This document shows, in pieces, positions 611-16,278 of a stretch of DNA of 64,000 nucleotides (the first letter of the stretch is position 1; each line of letters begins with the position of its first letter). Origin of the DNA: Candidatus Methylomirabilota bacterium (GTDB taxonomy: Bacteria > Methylomirabilota > Methylomirabilia > Rokubacteriales > CSP1-6). The position numbers and the translations under genes are program-made. The stretch lies in contig DASYUQ010000092.1 in assembly GCA_036001065.1 (NCBI GenBank), positions 434 to 64,433 on the forward strand. The letters run 5' to 3'. The notes below the pieces were generated by a model that did not search any database, was not told the origin of the DNA, and saw nothing but the letters and a program-made list of their open reading frames with translations.

Positions 611-709
611 ATGGCGGACGAAAAGGAACAGAAGGACAAGGACAAAGATAAGGACAAGCATCACCCGCCGCGTCCGGTGCCGCAGCCGACGCAGCATCCG
701 CAGCGGTAG
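611..709 (+). CDS. Possible 32-aa micro-ORF, (KD)n-rich, directly upstream of the E2-like gene
   Basis: ATG at 611 is preceded by GAGGTGAGGG. It translates to MADEKEQKDKDKDKDKHHPPRPVPQPTQHPQR and stops at 707-709, 50 nt before the ATG at 759. Low complexity, so coding status is uncertain. Confidence 0.2.
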   Translation: MADEKEQKDKDKDKDKHHPPRPVPQPTQHPQR

Positions 710-758
710 TTTTTGCTTGAACATCCTCGGCGGGTCTCTGTGGTGGAGTAGCGCAGAA

Positions 759-1544
759 ATGCGCGACTTCTGGCCATCCGAGATCCGCCGAGTCAAGCAG
801 GAATACCCTGCGTTCGAGTTACGTGACCGGCCACCGCGCCCCGACCTCGATCCGGATGACGCCGAACGGTGTGGTGTTGTCGTACGGACGTGGCGCGGCA
901 TGATGCAGCCCTTCCCGCCGACACTGGACAAGGACGAGCTACTCACGATCATCTCCGACCTGTACGACGGTGGCCCGGCACTCAGAATCGATTTGAACGG
1001 CACATTGCGCCACGATGTCCACTGTCGACGTCGAGCGCACCCCCTTCTCCCCGATCTCGTTCCCCAAAATCCGCTGACGGCCACGTATGAGATGGAGGTT
1101 GCGTACGCCGTGCCGCCGATGCGGCCCATCGTCCGCGCGATACACCCTCGGATCACGGTGCGCGAGTACCCGCAAATGCCGCAGCCCATCGCGCCGCTCA
1201 AGGCCTTGTGCGTCGCCAACGCGCCCACGGACCCGTGGAACTTCCACTCCGACGGCGCGCTACGCTATCTCGACTGGACTGCGTACTTTGTGGGCAAGCA
1301 CACCCTCTGGTTGGAGTGCTTACACCGCAATGGTCGCGCCGAGTGGCCCGGCCGTTCTCGCCCCGGCGATCCCGACGATGAGATCAAGAACACCCCTCCC
1401 AACGCCCCGTGTACCTGCAACTCGGAGGTCCCCTACCGCGACTGCCACCTAGCGTTCGACCTGGAGAACAGCGAGAGAAAGAAAAAAGGCCTACGTCCTG
1501 AAACGAGACCGTTGAGCATGGCGTTCTATAAATCTAGGCCGTGA
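759..1544 (+). CDS. Hypothetical protein with a UBC/E2-like core (tentative) and a C-terminal SEC-C zinc motif
   Basis: The ORF track gives 717..1544 (TTG). An in-frame ATG at 759 follows GGTGGAG. The SEC-C pattern CxCxSx3[YF][KR]xC[CH] is matched exactly by CTCNSEVPYRDCH. E2-like strings: EIRRVKQEYPAF, WRGMMQPFP, YEMEVAYAVPPMRPIVRAIHPRI (compare YPxxPPxVxFxxxIxHPN), then LKALCVANAPTDPW with a candidate catalytic Cys. The stop overlaps the next start (GTGA at 1541-1544). Confidence 0.65.
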   Translation: MRDFWPSEIRRVKQEYPAFELRDRPPRPDLDPDDAERCGVVVRTWRGMMQPFPPTLDKDELLTIISDLYDGGPALRIDLNGTLRHDVHCRRRAHPLLPDLVPQNPLTATYEMEVAYAVPPMRPIVRAIHPRITVREYPQMPQPIAPLKALCVANAPTDPWNFHSDGALRYLDWTAYFVGKHTLWLECLHRNGRAEWPGRSRPGDPDDEIKNTPPNAPCTCNSEVPYRDCHLAFDLENSERKKKGLRPETRPLSMAFYKSRP

Positions 1545-2179
1545 CGACTCACTACGCGCAGTCTGCAACTAGCATCTCCGGTGACCTTATCTCGCATGTT
1601 GAGTCACTTCACAGAACGGCATCGGAGTGGACCTCCCGTGGGCCGGCCGGTCTCGCACCCCTGGCAATCCCGGCGTATATCGTTGCCGTCGCAGCCGTCG
1701 AAGCGTATCTCAACGAGACGTACTCTTATTACTTCCGCCTGCCAGGGGAGGATGAGGAAGTGATATCAGCTGACGCTTTAGAGAAGCTAGAACTTGGTCT
1801 GAAACTGATCCTCCTTCCTTACTTGTTGTTCGGCAAAAAGCTCTCTAAAAGTCAGCAGCCTTATCAGGATATGGACCTCCTTATCAAGCTTCGTAATGAG
1901 CTTGTCCACTACAAGATGAGCGGGAAACCGCCGAAGCCTGTAAAGAGTCTCGCTCAGCGAGGCATTATAAAGCGCGTTCCGCCAGAGCAGGAGCAGGCCG
2001 GCGGACCCCACGCATGGGCTGACAGAATAAGCACGTTGGAAGGTATCCGCTGGGCAAACAACACCGCAGCTGCGACGGTCCATGCCCTGGCTGCCCTCGC
2101 ACCCTCGGACAAGGCAAAAGCGTTTACAAGCCTTGCGTCTAACTTTCGGACGATTCCGTTAGCGGCTCGAGGAAAGTAA
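1541..2179 (+). CDS. Hypothetical all-alpha protein with an Rx4H motif (HEPN-like, tentative)
   Basis: 212-aa ORF with a GTG start overlapping the upstream stop. LIKLRNELVHYK contains R-x4-H (R118..H123), the HEPN RNase signature, after helix-like segments (AVEAYLNETY). Clearly AT-richer than the surrounding genome. Confidence 0.65.
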   Translation: MTTHYAQSATSISGDLISHVESLHRTASEWTSRGPAGLAPLAIPAYIVAVAAVEAYLNETYSYYFRLPGEDEEVISADALEKLELGLKLILLPYLLFGKKLSKSQQPYQDMDLLIKLRNELVHYKMSGKPPKPVKSLAQRGIIKRVPPEQEQAGGPHAWADRISTLEGIRWANNTAAATVHALAALAPSDKAKAFTSLASNFRTIPLAARGK

Positions 2180-3075
2180 TGATCGCCGACGATGTCCTGG
2201 CAGGATTCATGCGCGTAGATCCCAAGCGCGGGGAAGTGTTCAAGCAGCAATTGGCATCTGCAATCGTCGTCAAGATTCAAAATGTCGCAAACTACTTTTG
2301 GGAAGGTACCGATCAGGAGGCATGGGATCTCCGCAGCGACTTTCCGAATGTCGCACCACCGTGGCCGCGCTTTTGGATGGAGTGGAAACTACCGACTGGT
2401 TTAGTGACGAAGACCGGTGGCTATCAGCGGCTTAGTGAAGAGGTTCCTCGGTGGGGTGTCGGTGTCTTCGGTGCTGCGGCAGAACTCGAAAACCGCTCTC
2501 TCGCGCGCTGGCAGTTGGATCTCTACTGCTTCTCTGGTTCGCCAGAGCGCCAAGATCCATTCATGGCGGCCATTCAACTGCTGATCGATGCTGACGGCCA
2601 TGTCGTGATGGGTGGTACGGAAGAAAACCCCCAAGCTGCCGTTTATGCGATTCCGAAGGCCGATATAGAGAGCTACGGTCAGGCCAGTGCAGAACTCGTG
2701 ACCAGCGCCAGCTTCCGTACGCCGGCGCTCCTTGCGCTCTGTTTTTGTCACTGCAACAACGTCACAATTATCGAAACACCGGTCTCATCCAAACTCCTCA
2801 AGAAACGAGACGCCCGCGATCGTGCACCCGTCACGAAGTACTACACGCTTGAAATCGCTCCTATGCAGAAGACCCTTCGAGAAGCGGCAGGCGCGGACGG
2901 TTCGCTCAAGCATGCCCTTCACATCTGTCGTGGTCACTTCAAAGACTATCGCGAGGGTAGCGGTCTATTCGATAAGTTTCGGGGGATGTATTGGTGGGAT
3001 ATGCACACGCGCGGGAGTAGCAAGCTTGGGGAGATCCGGAAGGACTACGACGTGAAGCCGCCTTGCTCCGCTTGA
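2179..3075 (+). CDS. Hypothetical protein, third gene of the cassette
   Basis: 298-aa ORF. The ATG at 2179 overlaps the upstream TAA by 1 nt and is preceded by GAGGAAAG. The composition is protein-like. The C-terminal block HICRGHFKDYREGSGLFDKFRGMYWWDMHTRG looks conserved but I cannot name a family. Confidence 0.65.
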   Translation: MIADDVLAGFMRVDPKRGEVFKQQLASAIVVKIQNVANYFWEGTDQEAWDLRSDFPNVAPPWPRFWMEWKLPTGLVTKTGGYQRLSEEVPRWGVGVFGAAAELENRSLARWQLDLYCFSGSPERQDPFMAAIQLLIDADGHVVMGGTEENPQAAVYAIPKADIESYGQASAELVTSASFRTPALLALCFCHCNNVTIIETPVSSKLLKKRDARDRAPVTKYYTLEIAPMQKTLREAAGADGSLKHALHICRGHFKDYREGSGLFDKFRGMYWWDMHTRGSSKLGEIRKDYDVKPPCSA

Positions 3076-3103
3076 CACTACGGAATAACTGGGGACAGCC
3101 GGG

Positions 3104-3253
3104 TCACTTCTTCCACCTCGCCGCTGCCGCCTTCTTCGCAATCTCCCGTCGTCGCTCTGCCGTGAGGTTCTTCGCCCGTGTCTGGCCGCCGATCCGGCCA
3201 AGCTCCTGGATGGCCCGTAGCACGCGCGGGTCGAGTCCTTTCCTGGCGCTCAT
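3104..3253 (-). CDS. Small basic 49-aa protein (below the ORF-track cutoff)
   Basis: Hand translation gives MSARKGLDPRVLRAIQELGRIGGQTRAKNLTAERRREIAKKAAAARWKK. The GG-x-RAK-x-L-[ST]-x-E-RR-x-IA-x-KAA-x-ARW tail is a recurrent small-protein pattern in mobile elements. Confidence 0.45.
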   Translation of the reverse strand: MSARKGLDPRVLRAIQELGRIGGQTRAKNLTAERRREIAKKAAAARWKK

Positions 3254-3346
3254 GGCTTAGGCCTAAGAATACCCTGGGCCGGTCTCAGAGACAACGCCCT
3301 GTCGGCAGGAGGAGAACTGAAGGCCTCCTTTGAGGGGGAGGCGCCG

Positions 3347-3538
3347 TCACCGCGCCACGTCAGGCCACCTATTGGGCGCTGCTGCGATCGCGTGCCGCTG
3401 GGCGATTACAGGGTCACCTGTGCGGAGTGATTCCTTCACCTCGCGCTTCCCAATGATCGGACGGAGCTTCGGCGGAACCATGCGACGGACGATGTAGACG
3501 CCATAACAGCGTGCGCTCCCCTGTACCAAGTGGAGCAC
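3347..3538 (-). pseudogene. N-terminal stub of a tyrosine integrase (arm-binding/DUF6538-like region only)
   Basis: The 63-aa ORF contains YIVRRMVPPKLRPIIGKREVKESLRTGDPVIAQRHA, the typical integrase N-terminal motif (yyfRrrvPkdLrpiiGkkeixxSLrT). No catalytic domain follows. Confidence 0.6.
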
Positions 3539-3582
3539 CGCGAAGATTGGCAGATCAGCTACTTCACGCGGTTAGCTGTGGC

Positions 3583-3610
3583 TGGTGGCCCCAACGGGAT
3601 TCGAACCCGG
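3583..3610 (-). other. tRNA 3'-half-like remnant (T-arm, acceptor 3' strand and CCA); not an intact tRNA
   Basis: tggtGGCCCCAacGGGATTCGAACCCgg is the reverse complement of a T-loop (GGTTCGAATCC-type), an acceptor strand and CCA. No complementary 5' acceptor strand or anticodon arm could be folded in 3611-3665. It differs from the tRNA-Phe 3' end and sits next to the integrase stub. Confidence 0.5.
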
Positions 3611-3696
3611 ATGAGTCCGGCCACGTTTTCGCCGGTCCTGCTGCCACTTTACGTGTCGACCAGTTCTGGCACTATCGACGCGATTCAAACCTGCAG

Positions 3697-4149
3697 CTAC
3701 GTTGAGCCATTGATCTCGCGCTCGAGTTTGCGAAGCCGCTCAATGAGCCTCTCGAAGCGCGGGGCAGTGCCGAAGATCATCGGAGCCATCTTTGCGTAGT
3801 CTCCAGCAAACTCGGCGAGCCTTGCCTCGGGGGGCACGAGCCTGAGTGTCCCGGGTTTAGCCGTGTCGTAGTGCGACCAGCCGGAGTAGAAGAAAACCTC
3901 CTTGTAACGCCTGACCTTCTCGAGCATCTCGGTGTCCCTGATGGCTCGCCGACCCGCCTCCGTGTCAGCAAGCAGCGCCAGGTCGTAACAATGACGCGAC
4001 AGCCGCTCTTTCGCTGGCCCCGCCGGACGGTGATACTCCGAATGTAGGAGCGTTGCCTTCTCCCAGAAGGTTCGCTCCGCTCCAAGAAGGGTATCCCAGG
4101 AAACGGGACGAGCTGGGATGCGAGACCCGGTAGCACCAGAGGCAGGAAG
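3697..4149 (-). pseudogene. C-terminal fragment of an AbiEii/AbiGii-family nucleotidyltransferase toxin (DUF1814)
   Basis: The frame is open from 4149 with no ATG/GTG/TTG before 3927. It reads ...ERTFWEKATLLHSEYHRPAGPAKERLSRHCYDLALLADTEAG...MLEKVRRYKEVFFYSGWSHYDTAKPGTLRLVPPEARLAEFAGDYAKMAPMIFG..., the conserved AbiEii C-terminal half. The N-terminal NTase half is absent. Confidence 0.6.
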
Positions 4150-4170
4150 TTAGTCCGCCAGCCTCCCCAG

Positions 4171-4950
4171 TCAGCGGCTCGGCGCAGCAGCGACCGGATA
4201 CTCCGACCACGTCTGGCCGGCCAGCTCGCGGCCGCCAGCCTTGGGCGTTCGACCGCCCCACTGCTTGAAGAAAAAGGCCACCCCGGCCGCCTGGCACAGG
4301 TCGCGGAGCTCAAGGAGCCAGCGTTCCGCTTCGGGCTTCGGTCTTACGCGGCCGGCGATAATTTCCACCAGGGCGCGCCGCGGGATGCCACCCGACTCGC
4401 CGCCGGCGATCAGCCAGGCGATCCCCCGAAGATCGAGGTCGGTAAGCGGCCCAAGCAACGGCTCAGCGCTGATGAACCTGATGCGAGCGTCCACCTGGCG
4501 GAGGCGCTCGACGCGCCAGGCATAGCGCATGGACTCAACCGACACGCCGAGCCACACGTTGGGCGGCACGGGCACGACCTCAGCCCGACCTCGGTGCCAC
4601 AAGACCATCCGATCCGGGCGTTTGGTCAACACCTGGAAGACATGTCGAGTCGCACGGGCCATAGTGGCGAACACCTCGTCTACATACTCAAGCGGCACAG
4701 CGTCGTGGAACAGATCACTCATGCTGTTGACAAATACGCGCCGTGGCTCTCGCCACCGAAGTGGCAGATCGAGCTGGTCGGGATGAAGTGTGACGGCGAA
4801 GCCATTCTGATAACGTGGGTTGCCCATGATCTTAAGGCGGAGGGCCAATCGTTCGGCGTAGCAGAACTTGCAGCCCGGCGAGATCTTGGTGCAGCCAGTG
4901 ACAGGATTCCACGTTGCGTCAGTCCACTCAATCGCCGAAGTAGCCCCCAC
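4171..4950 (-). CDS. DUF5131 / phage Gp37-Gp68 family protein (three-Cys motif)
   Basis: The N-terminus IEWTDATWNPVTGCTKISPGCKFCYAE is the family signature, including Cx6CxxC. 259 aa. Confidence 0.85.
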   Translation of the reverse strand: MGATSAIEWTDATWNPVTGCTKISPGCKFCYAERLALRLKIMGNPRYQNGFAVTLHPDQLDLPLRWREPRRVFVNSMSDLFHDAVPLEYVDEVFATMARATRHVFQVLTKRPDRMVLWHRGRAEVVPVPPNVWLGVSVESMRYAWRVERLRQVDARIRFISAEPLLGPLTDLDLRGIAWLIAGGESGGIPRRALVEIIAGRVRPKPEAERWLLELRDLCQAAGVAFFFKQWGGRTPKAGGRELAGQTWSEYPVAAAPSR

Positions 4951-4982
4951 GAAGGCTCTCTCCTTAGGCTCTTATCACTGAA

Positions 4983-5924
4983 TTATGACTCGTGGCCGGA
5001 CGTGCCATCGCGTTTTGGATTGCCTACAGCCCACAACTCCAGATCCAACTGCTCGCCCTGCTCCGGGACGTCAATGACGTCGCCGTAAGCACGGCGCATT
5101 TGCAGAGGCGCTTTCGGGTGGTCGGTCGCGTGAATCATATAGTACATGGTCCTTCCGCCTCGCTCGCGCTCATAAATCGCCCACGGCTTGACGGAGAGGT
5201 ATCCGAGCTCTCTCCTCATACGGTCGGCAAACCGATGAGCCCGGAGAGGGCCCGGCATCCCGCGCAGCTGCTGCCAATCGGAGCGACCCCACCACGCTTC
5301 AACCAGCGCTGGCCGCTTCACACCGGCCAGGGCTCGGTCAAGCCAGCTATTGGCCAGGAAATAGAAGAGCTCAATCTTGTAGCGTCCGGTTTTCTTGTGT
5401 GCCAGCGCCCGTAGTGTGGCCCACTGGCACTCAAAGGTCCACTGGTCGAGGAGACAGAACGTGGCCTCGTTCTCTCCGATCGCTGCCCCTTCAACGAAGT
5501 CAAGGACGCGCTCGTTGAAGTCTCCCGCGTAGATCTCCACAAAGCGCTCGTCGGACGGCGGCAGACTAGCCTTCAAGGCGTGAAGCCGTGCCAGTTGACC
5601 CCGGCTGCGCTCGAAAAGATGGAATCGACGTATCCACTTTGGCTCGAGCTCGAGCACGAGCTTCGCTGACCACGAGTCAGGGTCTTCAGGCTCTTGTGGA
5701 CCGGAGAACCCGTCAACGTACGTGCCGTGGCGTGTGATCATAAGGAACAGGAACAGATACCGCTGGATCAGTCGGGCCTTGTGGAGAGTCCATACCGGCT
5801 GGTCTGGCGTCGGGACGGACAGCGTTTCCGGTGCCACAGGCGCGGGTAGCGCGAAAAGGGTCGGCGCGTGGTCAGGATCGTTGCCAGGAAGCAGTTGCTC
5901 GCGCAACGGTCGACGACGCGTCAT
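4983..5924 (-). CDS. tcmP: Three-Cys-motif partner protein TcmP
   Basis: WTLHKARLIQRYLFLFLMITRHGTYVDGFSGPQ matches the TcmP (TIGR04474-type) N-terminal region. It lies immediately upstream of DUF5131, the defining gene pairing for the family. Confidence 0.75.
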   Translation of the reverse strand: MTRRRPLREQLLPGNDPDHAPTLFALPAPVAPETLSVPTPDQPVWTLHKARLIQRYLFLFLMITRHGTYVDGFSGPQEPEDPDSWSAKLVLELEPKWIRRFHLFERSRGQLARLHALKASLPPSDERFVEIYAGDFNERVLDFVEGAAIGENEATFCLLDQWTFECQWATLRALAHKKTGRYKIELFYFLANSWLDRALAGVKRPALVEAWWGRSDWQQLRGMPGPLRAHRFADRMRRELGYLSVKPWAIYERERGGRTMYYMIHATDHPKAPLQMRRAYGDVIDVPEQGEQLDLELWAVGNPKRDGTSGHES

Positions 5925-5928
5925 CGAG

Positions 5929-6933
5929 CTAATCAGTGTCGCGCGAACCGTGGAACCGCAGACTGGTTACGACAACGCGCCCGGGCTCAATCGAGCTCTC
6001 GTCGATGAGGTACACCAACCGCCTGAGTGGCTGAGAGTTGTCCGAGAACCAGTTCAAGATCCTCCAAGCTTTCGGGAGAAGATCTGTTGGGGCTGGGGTC
6101 ATCACGCCGCGGATAAATGCGGCCACGCCGCCGCGGCGGGTGAGATACTCGGCGAGAGCTCCGGCCGTCAGGTCTGCGATCGCTACAAAGTCCTCGGTCA
6201 CTGGCCCTGTGTCAATCGCTGTCGTACCGACCCGAAGGTGCCCAAGGTTGTGGTCAAGGTAAGAAGCTGAGACTGTAGCGGCTAGGTTCGTCAATTCGCG
6301 GAGTCGATCCGGGTTGGCCGCAATGTCGTCCTCGTCCGTGATCCAAATGACGTTCTGGCCGGGTGAACTCAATCCCGCCAGGAAGAAACTAACGAAGTGC
6401 ACGACCCGGAGCATTCGTTCGAGTACCGTCCGATTCCAGTGATCGTATTGCATAAGATCGAGTGGAGCTGCCTGGTTGTTCTGTAAGAAAAGACTGCCGG
6501 CGCGTTTCGAGATGAGAACTGCAACGAGGAGGCCAGGCATCGCATTGGCCGTCTCTAGGAACGGGCCAAGCGCTCGGCGCCGCCGCGTGTCACCCAGCTT
6601 GGAAAACGCAAACCGCCGACGATCCCGAAGATAGCGGTGCCTGATCTGATGCGTCTCAGATACCCAAGCGCTGAGATCCGAAGTATTCGCAAGGAGCAGG
6701 GCAAATGCCTCGTATCGGTAGCGCGGATGCTGACCGGCATAATCAGACCCAATCATCACCATGGGACCTGTATCGAGATTCGGTAGCAGCCCTGGATGCC
6801 GCCACTCGGCTTCCTGGATGCAGGCCGCGATGGTTCCCATCGGGCCAAGGTCTCGTCTTTTCAGGATGGTGGGATTAAACCTTGAGATTGGGACTCCGGC
6901 GCTCACCGGCAGCCCGAGTGAGCAGCCCGCCAA
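5929..6933 (-). CDS. Hypothetical protein (weak DUF3800-like features), first gene of the TcmP/DUF5131 operon
   Basis: 334-aa ORF ending 4 nt before the tcmP start. IWITDEDD and FVAIADLTAGALAEYL resemble the acidic motifs of DUF3800. The true start may be an internal Met (MGTIAAC or MVMIGSDYAG). AT-richer than the core. Confidence 0.6.
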   Translation of the reverse strand: MAGCSLGLPVSAGVPISRFNPTILKRRDLGPMGTIAACIQEAEWRHPGLLPNLDTGPMVMIGSDYAGQHPRYRYEAFALLLANTSDLSAWVSETHQIRHRYLRDRRRFAFSKLGDTRRRRALGPFLETANAMPGLLVAVLISKRAGSLFLQNNQAAPLDLMQYDHWNRTVLERMLRVVHFVSFFLAGLSSPGQNVIWITDEDDIAANPDRLRELTNLAATVSASYLDHNLGHLRVGTTAIDTGPVTEDFVAIADLTAGALAEYLTRRGGVAAFIRGVMTPAPTDLLPKAWRILNWFSDNSQPLRRLVYLIDESSIEPGRVVVTSLRFHGSRDTD

Positions 6934-7412
6934 GCCAGTAGCGGGAGGGACGGCCGCGACATTGCCGTCCCGACGCTATCCCGAAGGCGGCGGAGACGTC
7001 AAGTTATAGGCTTCTCACCTTTTCAGGGAGCCCTGCCGACGCCATGGATTTTTGGCTTTCGGAGGTACGGCTTGAGGCAGTCGCCGGGCCGCTTCATGGT
7101 CACTGGCCTAGCGTTCGGCAGTCGCTCGCCGTGCTCTCCTTGCACTCTGATTCCCGCATGGGCGCCGCACAATCTGTCCGGCTTCGCGTGCAAACGCGAC
7201 CTGCGGTAGAGCCAGCGACGCGCGCGGCGATTGAAGCGCCGAAGAGCACGGTGACTCCAGTTAGATCGGTACGGCTGATGGCGCGTCAGCTGACCAACCT
7301 CTGCCCGCTCTGCGCCTGCGATCCAGGAAGTGCTGCAAAACGCCTATGCTTCACGACTTCCCGTGGAGCTACGGCGACTCGCGTGGTGTCTGAAGTGGCT
7401 CTTCATCTCGCC

Positions 7413-7600
7413 TTACCGAAATGCTGTTCCTCGCCGCCCAAGGGGCTCGAGCTCATAGCGATCGCTCGCGGTGAGACGGTTCAGAGCGTCGGCCGACACC
7501 AGGAAGTGTCGATCGAGCTCACGCGTGGCGTGCTCAAGACGAGCCGCGGTGTTCATCACGTCGCCGTGAAACACGATATCGCGCTTCGTCTCTTCCTTCT
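7413..7600 (-). pseudogene. C-terminal stub of a class III adenylate/guanylate cyclase
   Basis: KRDIVFHGDVMNTAARLEHATRELDRHFLVSADALNRL...YELEPLG matches the cyclase core (GdxVNxAaRLe ... LG). It has no N-terminal half because the ARH gene stop at 7624 abuts it. Downstream frames look further degraded. Confidence 0.55.
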
Positions 7601-7623
7601 CTGGCTCCCCTTGGGTGCCGCTA

Positions 7624-9381
7624 TCAGCCGCCCGGCCCGCGTCGCAGGATCTGGAGCAACGCAGCAAGGAACGCCGCGGTCTGCTCGGGGGTGGCCTCGT
7701 TGGCGACCCGTCGAATTGCATAGCCGATGGACGCGTCGTCGCCTTGCTGGCGCTTCACCCAACCGATGGCCCGCTCTAGATCCAGCGGGCGGTCGCGCCG
7801 GGCCGGCCCAGACGCGGCCTCCTCCTGAGTGTCGCTACGCCCCGGGTCCGGCCGGTCCTCTCGCCAGTGACGGCGATCGGACTGGGGAGCGTCAGGCGTT
7901 TGGGGCATCTCGGGGGGGTCCCTGTGACGCGGTCCGCGCCTGTCAGTGTCGTCACCCGTGGTCTCCGGGTGGTGGACGACTGGCAGCTCGTCGCGGCGTT
8001 TGATCAAGATCGTCTGTCCGAACGTCAGTTCCGCCCACTGCCATTGGAACGATCCCTGCCGCGCCCGCATCGCCTCGCCGAGGGTGCGCCGGATCGGTCC
8101 AAGACCGGCAACGTGGAGCCCGTCGTGGCCGCGCAGTAGGGCGTCCGCTTGCGTCTGGGGAGCGACCCAGGTCAGCAGATCGGGGTAGCGATGCCCGACG
8201 CTGCGGCCGCCACTGGCGAGATCGGCCATTCTCCTGGCCTCGGCTGCGATGAGAGTGCTGTCCATCACCGGCACGGGCGGTTCGTCGGAGCCGACGGCAC
8301 CGAGAAGGGCGCCCGCCAACGTCGCGATGGTGTCGGTGTCGGAGCCGATGACGTTCGCAGCGGTGGCTAGCGACCTCGCGGGGGGTTCGTCGCACCAGGT
8401 AAGAGCTGCCGCCGCGACGACAGTGAGTATACCGCTGCCGCGGCGGGCCGGATCGAGAAGGTTGAGCGCATCGATCACGCGGCGATACCGCTCTCCCGCT
8501 GAACCGCTCGCGAGGGCACGTTCCGCGGCGCTGATAGCCTCGCCGACGTCATGGCACGCAGTCTGCCACGCTTCGGCGAACGGACTTCGTGCTTCCCGTT
8601 CCCACTCAGTGAGCCAGAACTGACCGAGCTGCGGATCGTCGCGGATTACGGACGGCACCATGCCGACTTCGTCGACGAGCTTGCCCAGGATCGCCGGGCT
8701 CGGGAGGGTCCCGGTAGCCATCGAGTGAGCGAGGGCGAGCGCATGAAGGGTCGCTCCAACCAGTGCCGTCGGGTGGGCGTGGGTGCACACCGAGTTGCGG
8801 AGCACGTCAAGCATGTAGGTGCGCGAATCATTCAGGTTCGAAGCGGCCCAGACATGCGGTTGGATTCGCATGGCGGCTCCATTACCTCCCGCGTGGAGCC
8901 AGTTCTGATAGGTATTCGAGAACCATGTGGTCGTGGCCTTCGCCAGATTGGTGGCAGCGGCCTTGGTCGAGAGCCCGCCGCCGAGCGCATACGCCAACCA
9001 AACAGGGAGCTCAACCTTGGCGAAAGCCTCGACATCGAACCCCTTCGGCCCGACGGCGCGGGCAACCGCAAGGCGAAGTTGCGTGTCGTCGGAGTAACAG
9101 CCCGCCGGGAGTGTCGCGTCAACCCCACCACGTCCGCCGATGCGCCGTTTCCACTCTATCGGAGTGGTCAGTTCGAGGCCTCCAGTGCGGCGGCGCAGTC
9201 CGGCGGCGTCGGTGAGCTCGCTGATGAACCCGAGCGCGTCGCCGTAGGCCGCCCACAGCGCCGACCGACGGGTTCGCGCGACGCGGGCGGCGTCGGCGGC
9301 GCCGCGCGGCAGCTGCTGCTCCGGCATCGCGGGCTCGGCGTTGTTGCGGGGCGGTTCGTCGAACAGCCCGTGGTCGCTCAC
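7624..9381 (-). CDS. ADP-ribosylglycohydrolase (ARH/DraG fold) with a C-terminal extension of about 250 aa
   Basis: ARH signatures: ALWAAYGDALGF, YSDDTQLRLAVARAV, GSDTDTIATLAGALLGA. The GTG start overlaps the DarT-like stop (GTGA at 9378-9381). The C-terminal part has a globular segment, a D/R/P/E-rich linker and a terminal helical block (IGWVKRQQGDDASIGYAIRRVANEATPEQTAAFLAALLQIL). Confidence 0.85.
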   Translation of the reverse strand: MSDHGLFDEPPRNNAEPAMPEQQLPRGAADAARVARTRRSALWAAYGDALGFISELTDAAGLRRRTGGLELTTPIEWKRRIGGRGGVDATLPAGCYSDDTQLRLAVARAVGPKGFDVEAFAKVELPVWLAYALGGGLSTKAAATNLAKATTTWFSNTYQNWLHAGGNGAAMRIQPHVWAASNLNDSRTYMLDVLRNSVCTHAHPTALVGATLHALALAHSMATGTLPSPAILGKLVDEVGMVPSVIRDDPQLGQFWLTEWEREARSPFAEAWQTACHDVGEAISAAERALASGSAGERYRRVIDALNLLDPARRGSGILTVVAAAALTWCDEPPARSLATAANVIGSDTDTIATLAGALLGAVGSDEPPVPVMDSTLIAAEARRMADLASGGRSVGHRYPDLLTWVAPQTQADALLRGHDGLHVAGLGPIRRTLGEAMRARQGSFQWQWAELTFGQTILIKRRDELPVVHHPETTGDDTDRRGPRHRDPPEMPQTPDAPQSDRRHWREDRPDPGRSDTQEEAASGPARRDRPLDLERAIGWVKRQQGDDASIGYAIRRVANEATPEQTAAFLAALLQILRRGPGG

Positions 9382-10070
9382 TCGAAGACCTCCGGTGCGT
9401 GGCGGACGCGAACATTGTGGTCGAGAGCGCCGAGGGCGCCGTGGACGTCGTCGAGCGCGTCTTCGGCCTGGACGTCGATCCGTTGGAGGTACCGCACGTC
9501 GACCTCACGCGGGTACAGCACCTCGGCCTGACGGTCCGTGGTGAAGTGGTCGGGGAGCCCGGCGCGGCTGTGAGTCGAGTCGTACCTGCCTATTACAGGG
9601 TCGTCGAATAGCTGGTTGAACCCTGCGAGCCCCTCTGCCCTCCGGCACGCCGGGTAAATGTTGTTGGTTGTCGCGAACACGACCCCGGGGTGGCTCAAGA
9701 TGTCCGGCACGAACGACAGCACCACCCACGACACACCGTCAGCGATGTGCCACCTCTCGGAGGTGTCAAACATCCAGTCGTTGATCCTCGAAATTGAGAG
9801 GCTCACGTAATCGAGCCAGGGGGCGTCGCGGCTCCGGTTCAAAGCGTTTGGGCGGTACACGTGCTCGAGGTACTGATCCCGCGGCAGCCGCCGTCTGCTC
9901 TTCAGGGCCCTGCCTGCCAAGATCCCGACTGCGCCATGGATGGTCGTGAAGTGGACGATGTCAGTAATGCCGCGCTTGATCGCGGCTGTCAGGACGTCAG
10001 AGCAGGGCGATAAGCGCGCCACTTCATCGCTCGTCCGGGGACGGGCCGCCTGGGGTCGGGTCATAGGCAT
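9378..10070 (-). CDS. darT: DarT-like DUF4433 ADP-ribosyltransferase (putative DNA-targeting toxin)
   Basis: The track ORF (9378..10661) is over-extended. The ATG at 10070 lies 7 nt after the helicase stop. Motifs parallel DarT: ITDIVHFTTIHGAVGIL (compare YHITHIDNLxGIL), DYVSLSI, VVFATTN, DRQAEVLYPREVDVRYLQRI (compare QAEFLV with the catalytic Glu). About 230 aa, the typical DarT size. Confidence 0.8.
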   Translation of the reverse strand: MPMTRPQAARPRTSDEVARLSPCSDVLTAAIKRGITDIVHFTTIHGAVGILAGRALKSRRRLPRDQYLEHVYRPNALNRSRDAPWLDYVSLSISRINDWMFDTSERWHIADGVSWVVLSFVPDILSHPGVVFATTNNIYPACRRAEGLAGFNQLFDDPVIGRYDSTHSRAGLPDHFTTDRQAEVLYPREVDVRYLQRIDVQAEDALDDVHGALGALDHNVRVRHAPEVFE

Positions 10071-10077
10071 CAATACC

Positions 10078-11484
10078 CTAGACCCTGACGGCATCGTAGG
10101 TCGCGGGATCAAGCAGGCCAATGAGTGTCGATCCCTCCCCAGGCTTGTAGCCGACCATGACGGAGGTGCGGGCACGACCGACGCCCATCGCGAGCAGCCG
10201 GCGGAGACGCTCGAGCGTCGCGTCCCCTTCCCCTTCGCCATGAGGTGTGACCTGCTGATTGAGGCCGGGGATAAGGACGTGGTCGAACTCGAGCCCCTTG
10301 GCGGAATGGATCGTCGACAGGCCCACCTGCTCGGGTCCGCTCGGCCAGACGCTCTGGCGCGTGAGCTCGCAGTGCGGGATGCCATGGCGGCGTAGCGTGG
10401 CGCGGGCGTAGTCGAACCACCTTCCGCCCCGCGGCTGCAAGATGGCCACCGACTCCTTCTTGAGATCGGCATGCTGCAGGAGCTCGGCCAGCATGTACTC
10501 GAGCTGGTTGCTGTAGGTGCCGATGACGACCTTGGGCCGCTTGCCTGTCTGCCGGCAGGCGGTGAAGTCGGGTAGCGACCCGTCGTCCTCGAGTGGCAGG
10601 CCCGCCACCAGTGGTCGCGCGAAGGCGGCAATCTCGGCGGTGTTCCGGTGGTTCTCCTCAAGCTTGTAGATCATGTTCGGCCGCAACGCGATGCCGACCT
10701 CGACCCACGTGAAGAAGCGAGGATAGATCCGCTGTACCGCGTCTAGCACGAACGTGGTCGAGTGGTTCTGGGACAAGTGGGCGAGCACGGCGCGCACCTG
10801 GTTGGCCGAGAAGTCCTGCGCTTCGTCGACAATGACGACGTCGTATTCCTCGGATTCGATGTCGGCCGCGCCGAGGGCGAGGTCGTTCCAGTCGAGAACG
10901 CCGGCGGCGTCCTTGGCGTCCTGGTAGGGCTGGATGACATCGTCGAGCAGGCGCTGCCGAAGGACGGCGTCGACTCTGGGCGAGTTACCCCGCCCAGTCC
11001 TTTCTTTTGAAAGGTACTCGCCGAGTTTCTCAGGGGTGAACCGCGAGACGGCGTACTCAACCTCGTCGACGAAGAAATCCAGTTGGTCGGGCCGGATCAT
11101 CCTGAGGAGATTCGGCTTCAGTCTCGCCGTCACCTCATCCCGATCGAGGATGTCGACGGGCCCGATAAGGCGGCGGGCCCACTTGCTGAAGGTGCTGACC
11201 TCGAGGTCGAGGCGCTGGTCGGCGGCGACCTGCTGGCGGGCGAGTTCGACGATGTAGCCCTCAAGCGTCTTGTTGTAGGTGAGGACCAAGACACTGACCG
11301 GGTCCCTCAGACCCAAACGATCCTGACGAGCGAGCCGACTCCTGGTCAGCTGCTTCAGACGGAGCAGGGCGGTGGTTGTCTTCCCGCTCCCCGCGGCTCC
11401 CCTGATGAGCCGAAAGCCGGGCCGGCTATCGGCGAGGATCGTCAGTTGCTCGCGAGAGGGCCGGACCGGCGGAAGGACCCGCAT
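10078..11484 (-). CDS. UvrD/Rep-like superfamily 1 helicase
   Basis: Walker A is IRGAAGSGKTTTAL, Walker B is VIVDEAQDF, and the C-terminal motif is HSAKGLEFDHVLIPGL. The ATG at 11484 is preceded by AGGAG (cctAGGAGtcgccccATG). The track ORF extends to 11727, but that N-terminal extension is Arg-rich junk. Confidence 0.85.
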   Translation of the reverse strand: MRVLPPVRPSREQLTILADSRPGFRLIRGAAGSGKTTTALLRLKQLTRSRLARQDRLGLRDPVSVLVLTYNKTLEGYIVELARQQVAADQRLDLEVSTFSKWARRLIGPVDILDRDEVTARLKPNLLRMIRPDQLDFFVDEVEYAVSRFTPEKLGEYLSKERTGRGNSPRVDAVLRQRLLDDVIQPYQDAKDAAGVLDWNDLALGAADIESEEYDVVIVDEAQDFSANQVRAVLAHLSQNHSTTFVLDAVQRIYPRFFTWVEVGIALRPNMIYKLEENHRNTAEIAAFARPLVAGLPLEDDGSLPDFTACRQTGKRPKVVIGTYSNQLEYMLAELLQHADLKKESVAILQPRGGRWFDYARATLRRHGIPHCELTRQSVWPSGPEQVGLSTIHSAKGLEFDHVLIPGLNQQVTPHGEGEGDATLERLRRLLAMGVGRARTSVMVGYKPGEGSTLIGLLDPATYDAVRV

Positions 11485-11658
11485 GGGGCGACTCCTAGGC
11501 GGAACCCGTTGCCCGGGTTCACATACTTGGCATGATACCCGCTCACGTCGAGGATAGCAACATGAGCGCCCTCCATCGCGAAGTTGAGGAGGACGAGGCC
11601 GCCATGGCGCTGGTCGCGCACATCGATCGCCGGGCGCATCGCCGGCTGCAGGCGAGCG

Positions 11659-11942
11659 ACTATACTCTGCGCCAAGCTCCTGGCGCCGATGGTGGCGCCG
11701 CTGCTCACGGCGCTGGAGCGGTATCACGGGGTCCCGATCTCCGCCGCCGTCCGCGCCACCCTCGAGGCCGCCAGCCCGGCGACGCTGGACCGACTGCTGC
11801 GCTCGCTGCGCCGCCGCCGCGCGCGCCCGCCCCGCCGGGCCTCGCCCCCCTGCACACGCTCCGGGCCCAGGTCCCGCTGCGCACCTGGAGTCAGTGGACC
11901 GGCGTGACGCCGGGCGCGGTCCAAGGCGATCTCGTCCTCCAT
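11659..11942 (+). pseudogene. N-terminal fragment of an IS transposase (integrase-core type), frameshifted and truncated
   Basis: Frame a reads ILCAKLLAPMVAPLLTALERYHGVPISAAVRATLEAASPATLDRLLRSLRRRR. Frame b reads LHTLRAQVPLRTWSQWTGVTPGAVQGDLVLH. These match the conserved N-terminal region of such transposases (icsKRLxpxlpelvxaLe...SaATiDRLL...iPiRTfaeWxdxxPGfxExDLVaHcG). No DDE core follows. Confidence 0.45.
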
Positions 11943-12878
11943 TACCTGTCGGCGATCCTGGCCAGCTCGCTCGCTCGCCATCCCGATCTGGAGGGCGGAT
12001 GGGCGCTCAAGGGCGGGACAGCCCTCAACCTGTTCCTTCTCGACGTTCCCCGATTGTCGATGGACATCGACATCAACTACGTGGGCCAGAGGGAGCTGGA
12101 GGCGATGCGGGCGGCCCGCCCACGTTTCGAGGCGGCGGTCGTAGCGTGCTGCGAGCGAGAAGATTGTACGGTGCGCCGCATGCCCGGCGAGCACGCGGGC
12201 GGGAAGCTTCGCCTGCGCTACACCGCGGCGACGGATGGCACCGGGTCGCTGGAGGTCGACGTGAACTTCCTGCTCCGGCGCCCAATCCTGGATTTGGAGC
12301 ACAGGGCGCCCCGCTTCCCGCCGGACGCTGGAGCCGAGACTGTTCCCCTCCTTCGCTCGAAGAGATCGCCGCCGGTAAGTTCACCGCGCTGCTGATCAGG
12401 CGAGCCACCCGCGACGCGTTCGACGCGTCTCAGCTTCTCGAGCTGGCCCCCAATCTGCTCGATCGGCCTGGCTTCCGACTGGCCTTCGTGATCTATGCCG
12501 TCGGAGTGCGACAGAGACATCCGGCGGCTCCGTCGCACCGATGTCGCCGTGACTCCAGCCGAGGTGCGGGATCAACTGCTGCCGCTGTTGCGCGTCGAAG
12601 GCCGGCCATTCGGCGGTGACCATGTCAGGCTAGCGGAGTACCTGACCAAGATCTGTACGTCAGCGGGAGAACGGCTACTGGCATGGACGGCCCGTGAACG
12701 GGAGTTCATCGATCGGCTGAGCGATGGCGGTGAGATCGTTGCTGAGCTCATCACTGACGTTTCGGCTACGCAGGCATTGGTGCGCAAGCACCCGCTCCTG
12801 CAGTGGAAGGCGCTGAACATCAGGGAGTTCAGGAGTCGGGGAAAGCCGGGCCCACGATCCGGGCGGCGACGCGCATAG
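11943..12878 (+). pseudogene. AbiEii/AbiGii-family nucleotidyltransferase toxin, N-terminally clipped by the IS stub and carrying at least two frameshifts
   Basis: GGWALKGGTALNLFLLDVPRLSMDIDINYVG is the NTase motif. It continues in a second frame (EEIAAGKFTALLIRRATRDAFDASQLLEL) and a third (12495..12878). Confidence 0.6.
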
Positions 12879-13833
12879 GAACCACCGCGACGGGCCGATC
12901 CCGGATCGCATCTCGTCGCCCAGGGTGACGGAGCGTCCGGAGGCACGCTCGACGGCACGCCGGCGGATCGTGGATCGGCATGCCGCCTGCCTGGAAAGCA
13001 TGAAGTATCACGGAAGTCGCGTGCTTCACGACTTGGTCTGAAGCGATAACGACTTGCGTCGCACGTGAGGTAAGTCTTTATCTTGCCGTACCACCGTCCT
13101 CTCCCTCCCCGCCCCTCTCCCGCCGGCCCCGTCCCTACCCCGTCATCGGTCCTGCGCCGGGCCCGTCTTGAGTCCGCCGCCGCCACGCCCGGAGGTCCGG
13201 TCCGGGTCCAAGAACAGCTCGAGAATCAGGCCGACCGAGGACCGGAGATCGATCGTCTGGCCGGTACTCTTCGGGTCCAGCCTTGGAACCAGCGCCAGGC
13301 AGCCGCCCAGCAATGCGGAAGGCCCAGCGGTGGCCACTGAACGGTGTCCAGCCGGGCCCGGTCCGACGGCTCTCGCTGGCGTCGGCCCTGCTCCGGGCTG
13401 AGCTGAACACCGCCATTGGCGCCGCCTACGAGGCCCTGGCGGCTCCGTTCGAACCTAGGCCAAGGCGAGCGTCTGGCTGGCCGCCAGCCTGCCTCCTGCG
13501 CTCGCCCCGCGGTCATCCGCTTCGATCGCGCGGCCCCACTACTGTGGCGATCTGAGGCGGGGCCGTGCATCTTGCCGCAGTCGAGCCGGGCCGATGGTTT
13601 GCTGCCTCGTGGCATGCCCACTCCATGATTCGGCAGCCCCGTCCGCGAGTTCCACCTGATCGCCGTGAGGACGCCAGGCCTCGGTGGGAACGGCAAAGTC
13701 CTTGCCTACTGCGCAGTCAGGCAGTCACCGTGACCATGCCGACCTGCCCTTCGCGTTCCCCAAGGCGCTCGGACGCCTTCCGGCCCGGGGCGCATCGTTC
13801 ACCCTTCGGCTCCTCGGCGGCTGAGTGTAGGCG

Positions 13834-14187
13834 ATGGACACACCCGGCCCGCTAGCCTCGGTGCCCGCGCTGGACGAGATCGCCCGCGAGCCGGGAAGGG
13901 CCGCGACGCTAACGCCCGATGTGGCTCGCACACTTCATGCTCGGTGCTTGGTAGTCCTGACGGCGCTACTCCCCGCCGTATCGACACCGGTCCCAATCGA
14001 GTCCACGGCGCGGGCCGAGGCGAGGAAGTGGCTCAGACCGAGAGAGGCGTCGATGCGGTTCAACGTTCCGAAACGGTGGCTCTTGGCGCACGCTGCCGAG
14101 ATCCCGGGAACACAGAGGCTATCCCGGAAGACCATCCTCTTCGAGGAGGCCCGGCTCGAACGCTGGCTGGAGAGGCACAAGCTTTGA
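13834..14187 (+). CDS. Excisionase/AlpA-like helix-turn-helix protein
   Basis: 117 aa. The C-terminal WLRPREASMRFNVPKRWLLAHAAEIPGTQRLSRKTILFEEARLERWLE resembles Xis/MerR-type HTH proteins. It sits immediately upstream of the integrase on the same strand. Confidence 0.6.
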   Translation: MDTPGPLASVPALDEIAREPGRAATLTPDVARTLHARCLVVLTALLPAVSTPVPIESTARAEARKWLRPREASMRFNVPKRWLLAHAAEIPGTQRLSRKTILFEEARLERWLERHKL

Positions 14188-14409
14188 ATATGACTGGCCA
14201 CATTGCCGTCTCGGTGCTGGAATTACCGTCACGGCCGAGAAGAGCCGCACCAGCAAGGAAGGAGAGGCCATGAGGAAAACCAGGCTTCGCATCGACCAGA
14301 AGGTTTGGCGCGGCGCCCGCATGGGGCCGCTCGACGAGCGAGTCGGCTTTCAGGGCATCGCCGACCGCGCGCTCCGGCTGCACCTCAAGACGCCGAAGGG
14401 AGGCGGGCG

Positions 14410-15630
14410 ATGAGCGGCGAGATCCAAGACGCGCCTCCCGTCCGCCGCGCCCGCGGCGACGGGTCGATCTTCCAGAAGCGGTACACGGACAGGCGCACGG
14501 GCGCGACGAAGAAAACCGACACGCTGTACATGAAGTTCTACGTCGGTGGTAAGCCAATTGTGGAGCCGACCGGGACCACGAAGTGGAACGCCGCCAGAAA
14601 GGTTCTGCGGCGCAGGATCGGCGAGATCGCCAGCGGGCGATACATCCCCGCCGATGTCGAGAAGACGACCTTCGGGCAGGTCAAGCAGATGGCGCTCGAC
14701 CATTATCGGGCCAATGGCCGGAAGTCCCTCGATCGCTTCGAGGACGCCGTCTCGCACCTGAGCGGGTTCTTCCCAGACCAGCTCAGGGTTCGCGACATCA
14801 GTCCTGACCGAATCACCGCCTACGTTGCGGCCCGGAAAGAGGAGAAGGCGGCAAACGCCACGATTAACAGAGAGCTCGCCGCCATGAAGCTGATGCTGCG
14901 GCTCGGCGAGCGCGCTGGAAAGGTTGTGAACCGCCCCTACGTCGGGATGCTGGAGGAGAACAACCGGCGCAAGGGGTTCATGGAGGACGACCAGTTCGCG
15001 GCCATCCAAGCGCATCTACCGCACGACCTGAAGGCTCCGATGGAGGTCGGGTTCATCACTGGTTGGCGCGTGAAGTCGGAGATCCTGACGAGACAGAAGT
15101 CCCACCTCGACCTCAAGGCTGGATGGCTGCGGCTGGAACCGGGCGAGACGAAGAACGGTGAGGGCCGGATGTTCCCTCTCCTCCCGCGGCTGCGAAAGGT
15201 GCTCGAGGCACAGGCGGTGAGAACCGAGGCCGTCGAAAGGGCCACGGGCCGGATCATCCCGTGGCTCTTCCACCGCAACGGCAAGCCGATCAAGTCCTTC
15301 CGTCGGGCGTGGCTGACCGTGTGCCTCAAGGCCGGATTCGCTCGGGTCGTCTCCGAGCAGCCCCGAAAGATCGAGGCGCTCCGAATCCCGCATGACTTCC
15401 GCCGGACGGCGATCCGAAACCTGGAACGGGCTGGCATCCCCCGGTCCGCCGCGATGGCGATGGTTGGGCACAAGACCGAGAGCGTGTATCGCCGCTACGC
15501 CATCGTCGAGGAGAAGATGCTGAATGAGGCCGGCGTGAAACTCCAGGGGCTCTATGACAGCGCCGAGGCCCCCGCCCGCACTGTTGTGGCTCTGGACGAG
15601 GCTCGTGCCGCTCGGGGCGCGAAGGCGTAA
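14410..15630 (+). CDS. int: Tyrosine recombinase / phage-type integrase
   Basis: The in-frame ATG at 14410 starts MSGEIQDAPP...GSIFQKRYTDRRTG. The C-terminal catalytic region is HDFRRTAIRNLERAGIPRSAAMAMVGHKTESVYRRYAIV (R..H-x-x-R..Y). The gene ends 96 nt from the tRNA-Phe 3' end. Confidence 0.9.
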   Translation: MSGEIQDAPPVRRARGDGSIFQKRYTDRRTGATKKTDTLYMKFYVGGKPIVEPTGTTKWNAARKVLRRRIGEIASGRYIPADVEKTTFGQVKQMALDHYRANGRKSLDRFEDAVSHLSGFFPDQLRVRDISPDRITAYVAARKEEKAANATINRELAAMKLMLRLGERAGKVVNRPYVGMLEENNRRKGFMEDDQFAAIQAHLPHDLKAPMEVGFITGWRVKSEILTRQKSHLDLKAGWLRLEPGETKNGEGRMFPLLPRLRKVLEAQAVRTEAVERATGRIIPWLFHRNGKPIKSFRRAWLTVCLKAGFARVVSEQPRKIEALRIPHDFRRTAIRNLERAGIPRSAAMAMVGHKTESVYRRYAIVEEKMLNEAGVKLQGLYDSAEAPARTVVALDEARAARGAKA

Positions 15631-15726
15631 CCGGAATGGTGCAAGTTCGGGGTAAGTCGAAGCTCCAGAACGAGACGCTCCCGAAGATCCTCTACTCGGA
15701 AGTCCTTAACAGGGCTGATAAAGGAA

Positions 15727-15802
<76 letters not shown>

Positions 15803-15840
15803 ACCAGATCGAGAAGAATAGCAGAGGGGTATGGGGGTGT

Positions 15841-16278
15841 CTATTCGACGACGGTGATGATGCCGATGGCGCCGGACTTCTGGAAGTACACCGTGACGAT
15901 GATGACCTCGCCCGGCGTCAGCGTGCGCGTCAGATCGCTGAGGACGATGCGCGGCCCGTCCTTGTCGAATTTGAGGACGCTCTGCCCCGGGATGTCGATC
16001 TCGCTCACCTGACGGCCCGACGGCGAGCGCAGCTCGGCGCGTCGGGCCACCGGCGCCTGCGCCCCCAGCAGGACGTCGCCGTATTTCCCCGTGCTCTTGA
16101 GGTCGAAGTAGACGACGGCCTCGTTGGCGGTCGGCGACCGCACCGCGCGCCCCTTCTCGGGCTGCAGGCGCACGCCGCCGACGTCTGGCGCGGTGGGGTA
16201 GTACGTGCAGCCGGCGGTCAGCGCCAGCAGCGCCAGCGCGCCGCCGGCGGCGCGCGGTGACCACCGGCCCCGCGTCAT
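15841..16278 (-). CDS. Copper chaperone PCu(A)C-like lipoprotein (DUF461)
   Basis: MTRGRWSP...LALLALTAGC lipobox, then VYFDLKSTGKYGDVLLGAQAPVARRAELR...IDIPGQSVLKFDKDGPRIVLSDLTRTLTPGEVIIVTVYF. The ATG overlaps the upstream TGA (ATGA at 16276-16280). Confidence 0.75.
   Translation of the reverse strand: MTRGRWSPRAAGGALALLALTAGCTYYPTAPDVGGVRLQPEKGRAVRSPTANEAVVYFDLKSTGKYGDVLLGAQAPVARRAELRSPSGRQVSEIDIPGQSVLKFDKDGPRIVLSDLTRTLTPGEVIIVTVYFQKSGAIGIITVVE

Follow-up and report, generated by a model that had tools for sequence, protein, structure and literature searches.

Two kinds of antitoxin partner, the macrodomain and the NADAR proteins, are the only ones mentioned for DarT enzymes by Schuller et al. 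(2023) and in a 2022 review from the Aravind group. A distinct arrangement emerged from a protein domain-centric search for anti-phage systems (Liu et al., bioRxiv, December 2025; Nucleic Acids Research, April 2026; PMC13069673), in which Liu-DS3 of Escherichia coli was described as an operon resembling DarTG, with an additional helicase that is UvrD-like and has no 2B domain. The paper names the system DarHTG, the helicase DarH and the ADP-ribosylglycohydrolase (ARH)-like antitoxin DarG3; the preprint had called the helicase TgaH and the system TgaH-DarTG. E. coli DarHTG protects against T4, T5, T7 and SSL_2009a in an abortive-infection-like manner. Its defence needs the DarT active site and is abolished by mutation of the ATP-binding residues of the helicase, and no mutant of DarG3 could be obtained. 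Fewer than 0.5% of E. coli genomes carry the system, which is present in several phyla (PMC13069673). Here we analyze a 64,000-nucleotide (nt) stretch of DNA, hereafter the window, from a Candidatus Methylomirabilota bacterium, whose minus strand at 7624–11484 very probably encodes an intact, divergent member of the DarHTG family, a three-gene toxin–antitoxin-type anti-phage system residing on a mobile island.

The gene structure of 7624–11484 was established from a six-frame list of open reading frames and by direct reading of the sequence. The genes and the putative expression signals ahead of them are:

10078–11484, minus strand: darH-like helicase gene, 468 amino acids (aa) from the ATG at 11484, stop TAG at 10080–10078
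9378–10070, minus strand: darT-like gene, 230 aa, ATG at 10070–10068
7624–9381, minus strand: darG3-like ARH gene, 585 aa, GTG start at 9381
11492–11496, minus strand: Shine-Dalgarno sequence AGGAG, read directly, 7 nt 5′ of the helicase ATG
11532–11560, minus strand: candidate sigma70-like promoter, TTGCTA and TATCAT with a 17-nt spacer, 48 nt 5′ of the helicase ATG, a consensus match only

All three genes are intact, consecutive and closely packed. The helicase stop lies 7 nt from the DarT ATG, and the DarT stop and ARH start share the tetranucleotide GTGA (9381–9378). The candidate promoter is the sole sigma70-like site within 7300–11900, against 0.4 expected in shuffled sequences. Database gene calls for the same proteins start later, yielding a DarT of 214 aa and an ARH of 567 aa. 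Alignments support the longer starts used here, because the DarT N-terminus, with A9, P11 and R12 nearly invariant across the family, and the 4-nt DarT/ARH overlap are both conserved. A first-pass annotation of this DNA had already described three minus-strand genes forming one unit, with this gap and overlap, a good ribosome-binding site before the helicase and the longer start codons, all of which bears out. Profile searches, which it had proposed as a check, match all three proteins, DarT to PF14487, ARH to PF03747 and the helicase to the UvrD models; NCBIfam and PADLOC models point to similar kinds of protein, though weakly.

Among 5426 complete E. coli genomes, 21 encode homologs of each window protein over its full length, which RefSeq labels "3′-5′ exonuclease," "DarT family protein" and "ADP-ribosylglycohydrolase family protein." These 21 genomes (0.39%) are the ones matched, at 93.8% identity, by the DNA of a Kluyvera locus. 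The window helicase aligns over its full length with E. coli WP_000699006 (44% identity, 2e-136), DarT with WP_000151475 (39%, 1e-49), and ARH with WP_001087212 (35% over 566 residues, 2e-117, its C-terminal extension included). Since the description is identical and the frequency of 0.39% fits the published figure of less than 0.5%, we infer that this E. coli trio is Liu-DS3. Both systems comprise a helicase, a DarT and an ARH-like antitoxin in the same order; they differ in the phylum of the host and in that the functional data belong to the E. coli system. Because the DarHTG architecture is already published, named and functionally validated in E. coli, the window trio represents a further member of a described system, and the premise of the first-pass annotation that the trio was uncatalogued falls away, DarHTG having been published in 2025–2026 and each window protein matching its E. 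coli counterpart over the whole length. Its more general proposal, a DarTG-type module in which an ARH replaces the macrodomain or NADAR partner and a superfamily 1 (SF1) helicase belongs to the operon, is upheld by Pfam, PDB and fold searches and by synteny. Apart from the Nucleic Acids Research paper, a literature search for DarT3, DarTG3 and DarG3 returned only citation-superscript false positives, and one for DUF4433 together with DraG found nothing.

The family to which the window locus belongs is large. For the DarT-like protein, a collection of 5.8 billion proteins contains 637 clusters of homologs, the best 120 of them at 59–100% identity. A neighbourhood scan restricted to one genome per species, with relatives of the window proteins placed by tblastn, covered 80 loci in at least six phyla, with carriers in Chloroflexota, Alpha- and Gammaproteobacteria (Pseudomonas, Vibrio, Kluyvera and Xenorhabdus among the latter), Acidobacteriota, Spirochaetia, Binatia and Actinomycetota. 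ARH lies directly downstream of DarT in every one of the 80 loci, the helicase directly upstream in 79, and the order helicase–DarT–ARH is accordingly found in 79/80. The 4-nt overlap of the DarT stop and ARH start recurs in 51 of 78 loci, and in most loci the helicase and DarT genes overlap or are separated by at most 9 nt. Since synteny, overlap and short gaps recur across loci, an arrangement well past what chance would give, the helicase–DarT–ARH trio is one selected unit, in keeping with the conserved linkage that the first-pass annotation had proposed to survey.

The surroundings of the trio differ from locus to locus, and are often rich in genes for defence or mobility. In three neighbourhoods viewed individually, the helicase (~467 aa), DarT (~230 aa) and ARH (~580 aa) are of similar size and the contexts are otherwise unrelated. 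In a Binatia metagenome-assembled genome (MAG), the trio adjoins TonB-receptor and metabolic genes; in a Paracoccaceae MAG (locus L002), it lies near DruA (3110–3781) and its helicase is split into two gene calls; in an Acidimicrobiia MAG (L003), it sits between the type I restriction gene HsdR and a Bil-type (BilD/ThiF) cluster, with neighbouring defence genes at 9028–11758. The closest relatives of the window proteins come from Acidimicrobiia MAGs, and in the copy just mentioned the helicase and DarT are 83–86% and the ARH ~75% identical to those of the window. Plasmids bearing the trio include one of 322 kb from Salmonella and a small one from Streptomyces (L086), where its neighbours at 1–2335 are a Tn7-like TnsA and a DDE transposase. 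Only five plasmids carry a DarT relative, and none was found in IMG/VR viral contigs or GenBank phage genomes. Strict synteny in unrelated genomic contexts, plasmids included, supports the earlier suggestion that the cassette moves as a block. In one E. coli locus (L084), the neighbours of the trio at 12081–15983 are a 1300-aa P-loop NTPase and insertion sequence (IS) and integrase genes.

One might ask whether the helicase belongs to the system at all, or is an unrelated neighbour of a functional unit made of DarT and ARH only. The helicase is absent in L031 and split over reading frames in L010 (the Paracoccaceae locus L002), L012, L015, L054 and L070; the other two genes look intact in L010, L012, L015 and L031, and in L054 and L070 the ARH gene is likewise split. 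Were these losses real, a DarT–ARH pair could persist without the helicase. Many of the split cases come from MAG assemblies, however, and may stem from indel errors. Together with a helicase directly upstream in 79/80 loci at gaps of mostly 9 nt or less, or overlapping, and the loss of E. coli defence upon mutation of its ATP-binding residues (PMC13069673), this renders an incidental helicase very improbable.

The transferase clearly belongs to the DarT family. It matches PF14487 at 2.2e-21 and, weakly, the DarT model of PADLOC (7.2e-6). A profile built from 23 family members retrieves from the PDB a sole match, DarT1 of E. coli C7 (8baq, 2.4e-8); DarT2 chains are absent from its matches even with E ≤ 10 admitted. 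An AlphaFold2 (AF2) model of the window protein, with a mean pLDDT (score of the predicted local distance difference test) of 72 and some loops below 50, points the same way: in Foldseek its best match is again 8baq (4e-9, template modeling scores 0.63/0.69), followed by Thermus DarT2 (~2e-6) and then M. tuberculosis DarT, with DarT2 matches ranging from 2e-6 to 5e-4, and DarT1 and DarT2 are its only structural neighbours. The residues essential to DarT1, as defined by Schuller et al. (2023; PMC11543638), can be followed into the family. Its invariant positions include H40, R79, D82, S92, M100, N136 and E183. H40 is the histidine of an HFTT motif and the "H" of the H-Y-E signature; S92 aligns with DarT1 S63, placing a serine at the tyrosine position of H-Y-E as in DarT1; and R79, D82, M100 and E183 pair with R52, D54, M71 and E152 of DarT1. 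With E183, the catalytic glutamate, and the remaining counterparts of DarT1 residues all invariant, the active site is intact by sequence. The DarT landmarks listed in the first-pass annotation are likewise present, most of their residues invariant or nearly so in the family alignment. Relative to E. coli DarT, the subclade of the window protein carries ~23 extra N-terminal residues.

N136 aligns with DarT1 N104, the asparagine through which that enzyme recognizes N2/N3 of its guanine target (PMC11543638); DarT2 carries His119 at this position. By profile, fold and residues, the window DarT is closer to the guanine-specific DarT1 than to the thymine-specific DarT2, a likeness not found in the main text of PMC13069673. 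An asparagine at the N104 position is invariant in the window protein's family, which hints at guanine as a candidate target base.

The antitoxin is a two-part protein, consisting of an ARH catalytic domain and ~195 residues beyond it:

8212–9306, minus strand: ARH catalytic domain, residues ~26–390, delimited by ARH3 alignment, invariant columns and the model
7987–8199, minus strand: DarG3 module 1, residues ~395–465, a five-stranded beta domain with a YPDLL-W-xP motif ahead of it
7789–7962, minus strand: DarG3 linker, residues 474–531, variable, charged and disordered, pLDDT < 50
7642–7779, minus strand: DarG3 module 2, residues 535–580, a C-terminal three-helix bundle with the motif IGxALRRV

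The sole Pfam family on this protein is ADP_ribosyl_GH (PF03747, 8.1e-30, residues 44–363). Neither a Macro nor a NADAR domain is matched in Pfam, and no PADLOC model matches the protein. Its AF2 model (mean pLDDT 82, predicted template modeling score 0.77) finds ARH3, MJ1187, DraG and the Listeria ADP-ribosyltransferase (ART)–ARH immunity protein 8za7 as top Foldseek matches. The invariant residues E55, S97-D98-D99 and D348-T349-D350 align with the stretches E41, T76-D77-D78 and D314-T315-D316 of human ARH3, which hold the metal ligands of that enzyme. The motifs singled out by the first-pass annotation (YGDALGF, YSDDTQL and GSDTDT) are all there, and mostly invariant or nearly so.

The C-terminal extension is conserved in its entirety, beta domain, linker and helix bundle, as far as E. 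coli. Module 1 is anchored by invariant residues, namely the YPDLL-W-xP motif, GLG at 426–428, F445, W447, W449, G455-Q456 and K461. Across 41 close relatives, module 2 has R557 without exception and G553 almost always; the E. coli protein keeps G553 and not R557. Neither module has a significant Pfam or PDB sequence match, the best PDB match of the C-terminal part being yeast mating factor alpha at E 0.43, which was discarded as spurious. Discussion of a C-terminal module was not found in the main text of PMC13069673.

The helicase displays the complete set of SF1 motifs in its translation: Walker A GAAGSGKTT, motif II VIVDEAQDF, motif III VLDAVQRIY, motif IV ENHRNT, motif V STIHSAKGLEFDHV and motif VI LLAMGVGRAR. 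It matches UvrD_C (4.3e-13), UvrD-helicase (1.1e-10) and AAA_19 (1.7e-6) in Pfam, and its best PADLOC matches are NERD+UvrD (2.9e-21) and GajB (3.2e-20). In alignment with Rep, residues 215–300 correspond to Rep 209–298 and residues 385–441 to Rep 550–606, such that the intervening residues 300–385 must cover Rep 298–550 with ~167 residues fewer between motifs IV and V. Because this deficit falls where Rep and UvrD carry their 2B domain, the window protein is, by its sequence, a UvrD-like SF1 helicase without 2B. DarH was published as lacking 2B, and the alignment of the window helicase agrees with this.

Set against better-known systems, the window locus resembles several and coincides with none. 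DarTG1, the DarT1–NADAR pair of E. coli C7 (8baq; PMC11543638), supplies the closest solved DarT by both profile and fold, with which the window enzyme shares the serine at the "Y" of H-Y-E, the R/D pair, the methionine, the base-coordinating asparagine and the catalytic glutamate, and it too is a toxin–antitoxin-type phage defence. It differs in its NADAR antitoxin and lack of a helicase, and its DarT is only ~20% identical to that of the window. With DarTG2 (from Thermus, enteropathogenic E. coli and M. tuberculosis), the window system has in common the DarT fold and an antitoxin composed of a hydrolase domain and an extra C-terminal part; in DarG2, that part binds DarT. Here the differences are the macrodomain of the antitoxin, the specificity for thymine, His119 in place of the asparagine and a module devoid of helicase. 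ART–ARH pairs such as DraT/DraG, Tre1/Tri1 and Listeria 8za7 also encode an ARH-fold hydrolase beside the transferase that it neutralizes, and the transferases of these pairs target protein arginines. In contrast, the window unit has a DarT, a ~195-aa additional module on its ARH, and a helicase. Gabija, finally, shares a UvrD-like helicase, GajB being among the best PADLOC matches.

In each of these cases a defining component is missing or different, for which reason filing the locus as canonical DarTG, Gabija or a DraT/DraG-type pair was rejected. The DarT partner carries ADP_ribosyl_GH, neither macrodomain nor NADAR; no GajA-like ATPase/TOPRIM gene is adjacent, and the effector is an ADP-ribosyltransferase; and the transferase is of the DarT family, in the H-Y-E lineage with a serine at Y, not of the R-S-E type. 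The 2023 models of PADLOC would probably not call the window locus DarTG.

The genomic setting of the operon is that of an integrative island, bounded by two features to its right:

15727–15802, minus strand: tRNA-Phe (GAA), found by ARAGORN, the likely integration site and the boundary of the island in GC content
14203–15630, plus strand: tyrosine integrase (PF00589, 8.5e-11; PF02899, 1.9e-4), adjoining tRNA-Phe

GC content is 0.637 over 1–15726 versus 0.702 over 15803–64000. The cassette itself stands at 0.665, and its GC content at third codon positions is 0.78–0.84, compared with 0.88–0.95 in many long open frames elsewhere in the window. Because tRNA-Phe and the integrase bound a region of lower GC, the cassette is placed in an integrative island and its composition is not host-like, contrary to the first-pass annotation, which had called it so; the cassette differs from the 0.702 of 15803–64000. 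The island looks to be at least 15.7 kb long. Its left end is placed beyond the window, since no direct repeat of an attachment site was found within 1–16200. Such a lower-GC tRNA-Phe/integrase island was not found in the main text of PMC13069673.

Divergent from the operon, the island holds the remains of another toxin gene:

11970–12619, plus strand: frameshifted remnant of AbiEii, a type IV toxin–antitoxin nucleotidyltransferase toxin

AbiEii (PF08843) is matched in two frames, at 1.1e-14 in that of 11532–12395 and at 1.3e-3 in that of 11894–12619, and the matches are therefore read as a second, decayed toxin–antitoxin/abortive-infection gene beside the intact system.

How the window system might work can be sketched as follows. 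A single transcript with translationally coupled genes would yield DarH, DarT and DarG3. DarT would be an NAD+-dependent ADP-ribosyltransferase that, once unleashed, modifies single-stranded DNA bases of the phage (and of the host), blocking replication. In uninfected cells, DarG3 would keep DarT harmless by reversing the adduct, by sequestering DarT, or both. Its ARH domain, in which the ARH3 metal-ligand positions are intact, would hydrolyze the ADP-ribose adduct, and its conserved C-terminal module probably docks on DarT and/or DarH. DarH most likely links the system with phage DNA, by making or tracking single-stranded DNA for DarT or by sensing phage replication intermediates. In this scheme we infer the DNA target and its base, the hydrolysis by ARH and what the helicase and the C-terminal module each do. 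The full conjunction, in which a DarT1-like enzyme modifies guanine N2, DarG3 is the first ARH to cleave base-linked ADP-ribose, its C-terminal module acts as a tether and the helicase triggers release or redirection of DarT, is a tentative proposal that we regard as somewhat doubtful as a whole. If true, ARH would be the third fold, after macrodomain and NADAR, to reverse nucleobase ADP-ribosylation on DNA, and the DarG3 C-terminal module would tether the protein to DarT and/or DarH until the helicase, acting on phage DNA, releases or redirects DarT. As the published work on DarHTG is genetic only, the remaining interest lies in its biochemistry and in the DarG3 C-terminal module, for which a large, conserved family spanning many phyla offers many orthologs for biochemistry and structure, that of the high-GC window included.

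The weakest step of this scheme is the hydrolysis. Among the hydrolases tested, only NADARs reversed guanosine-linked ADP-ribose (PMC11833690), and ARH-like hydrolases had at most low activity on its uracil-linked counterpart (PMC13036486). Given these two panels, ARH hydrolysis is the least secure element: DarG3 may possess a specificity new to ARHs, or else what DarT modifies may be something other than a DNA base. The main rival account takes the latter course: the DarT-like enzyme modifies protein or RNA, the candidate targets including an arginine or serine in a protein of the phage or the host, or in the helicase itself, and the ARH acts as known ARHs do in DraT/DraG and ART–ARH pairs. 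The nearest folds to the window ARH, ARH3, DraG and the Listeria immunity protein, speak for such a target, as do the published assays just cited. Yet the transferase clearly has the DarT fold, it has no structural neighbours besides DarT1 and DarT2, both of which modify DNA, the guanine-coordinating asparagine of DarT1 and the catalytic R/D pair are kept, and the obligatory partner is a DNA helicase. We accordingly consider a protein or RNA target unlikely.

Conceivably, the cassette could serve mainly as an addiction or stabilization module of the tRNA-Phe island, or as a replication regulator, rather than in phage defence. Its residence in an integrative island here, and on plasmids and with a Tn7-like element elsewhere, speaks for such a role, and M. 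tuberculosis DarTG controls replication and gene expression according to PMC12170906. Against this, the equivalent three-gene system of E. coli confers protection from four phages, and the neighbours of the trio include the defence genes HsdR, Bil, DruA and AbiEii; addiction and defence, moreover, are not mutually exclusive. A mainly non-defensive role seems improbable, more so than a protein or RNA target, and we retain the assignment to an anti-phage DarHTG system. Several points nonetheless weigh against that assignment or the mechanism attached to it: the functional evidence comes from the E. coli system, and transfers to the window member by sequence resemblance; the link between the E. 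coli trio and Liu-DS3 is drawn from description and frequency, not from the sequence of the construct; efficient removal of base-linked ADP-ribose is not known for any enzyme of the ARH family; and the AF2 model of DarT, with its loops below a pLDDT of 50, is of moderate quality.

The remaining neighbours of the operon, all on the minus strand, lie on its downstream side:

7413–7601, minus strand: putative class III nucleotide cyclase remnant from the C-terminal part, 62 aa, with the motif GDVMNTAARLE, directly downstream of the ARH stop
5929–6933, minus strand: open reading frame of 334 aa without a family, following TcmP
4983–5924, minus strand: TcmP, three-Cys-motif partner protein (TIGR04474, 1.8e-35), adjoining the DUF5131 gene
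4171–4950, minus strand: DUF5131 protein (PF07505, 3.5e-88)

The first-pass annotation had bracketed the cassette between two gene wrecks, a cyclase stub on this side and an IS stub at 11659–11942 on the other. The cyclase fragment gains some weak backing from tblastn (5e-7 to annotated adenylate/guanylate cyclase genes, with no Pfam match). The IS stub could not be confirmed, the stretch 11584–11907 having no support in Pfam, NCBIfam or plasmid tblastn searches; the AbiEii remnant begins shortly past it, at about 11970. Farther downstream, DUF5131 and TcmP form a conserved pair that shares the island with the defence operon.

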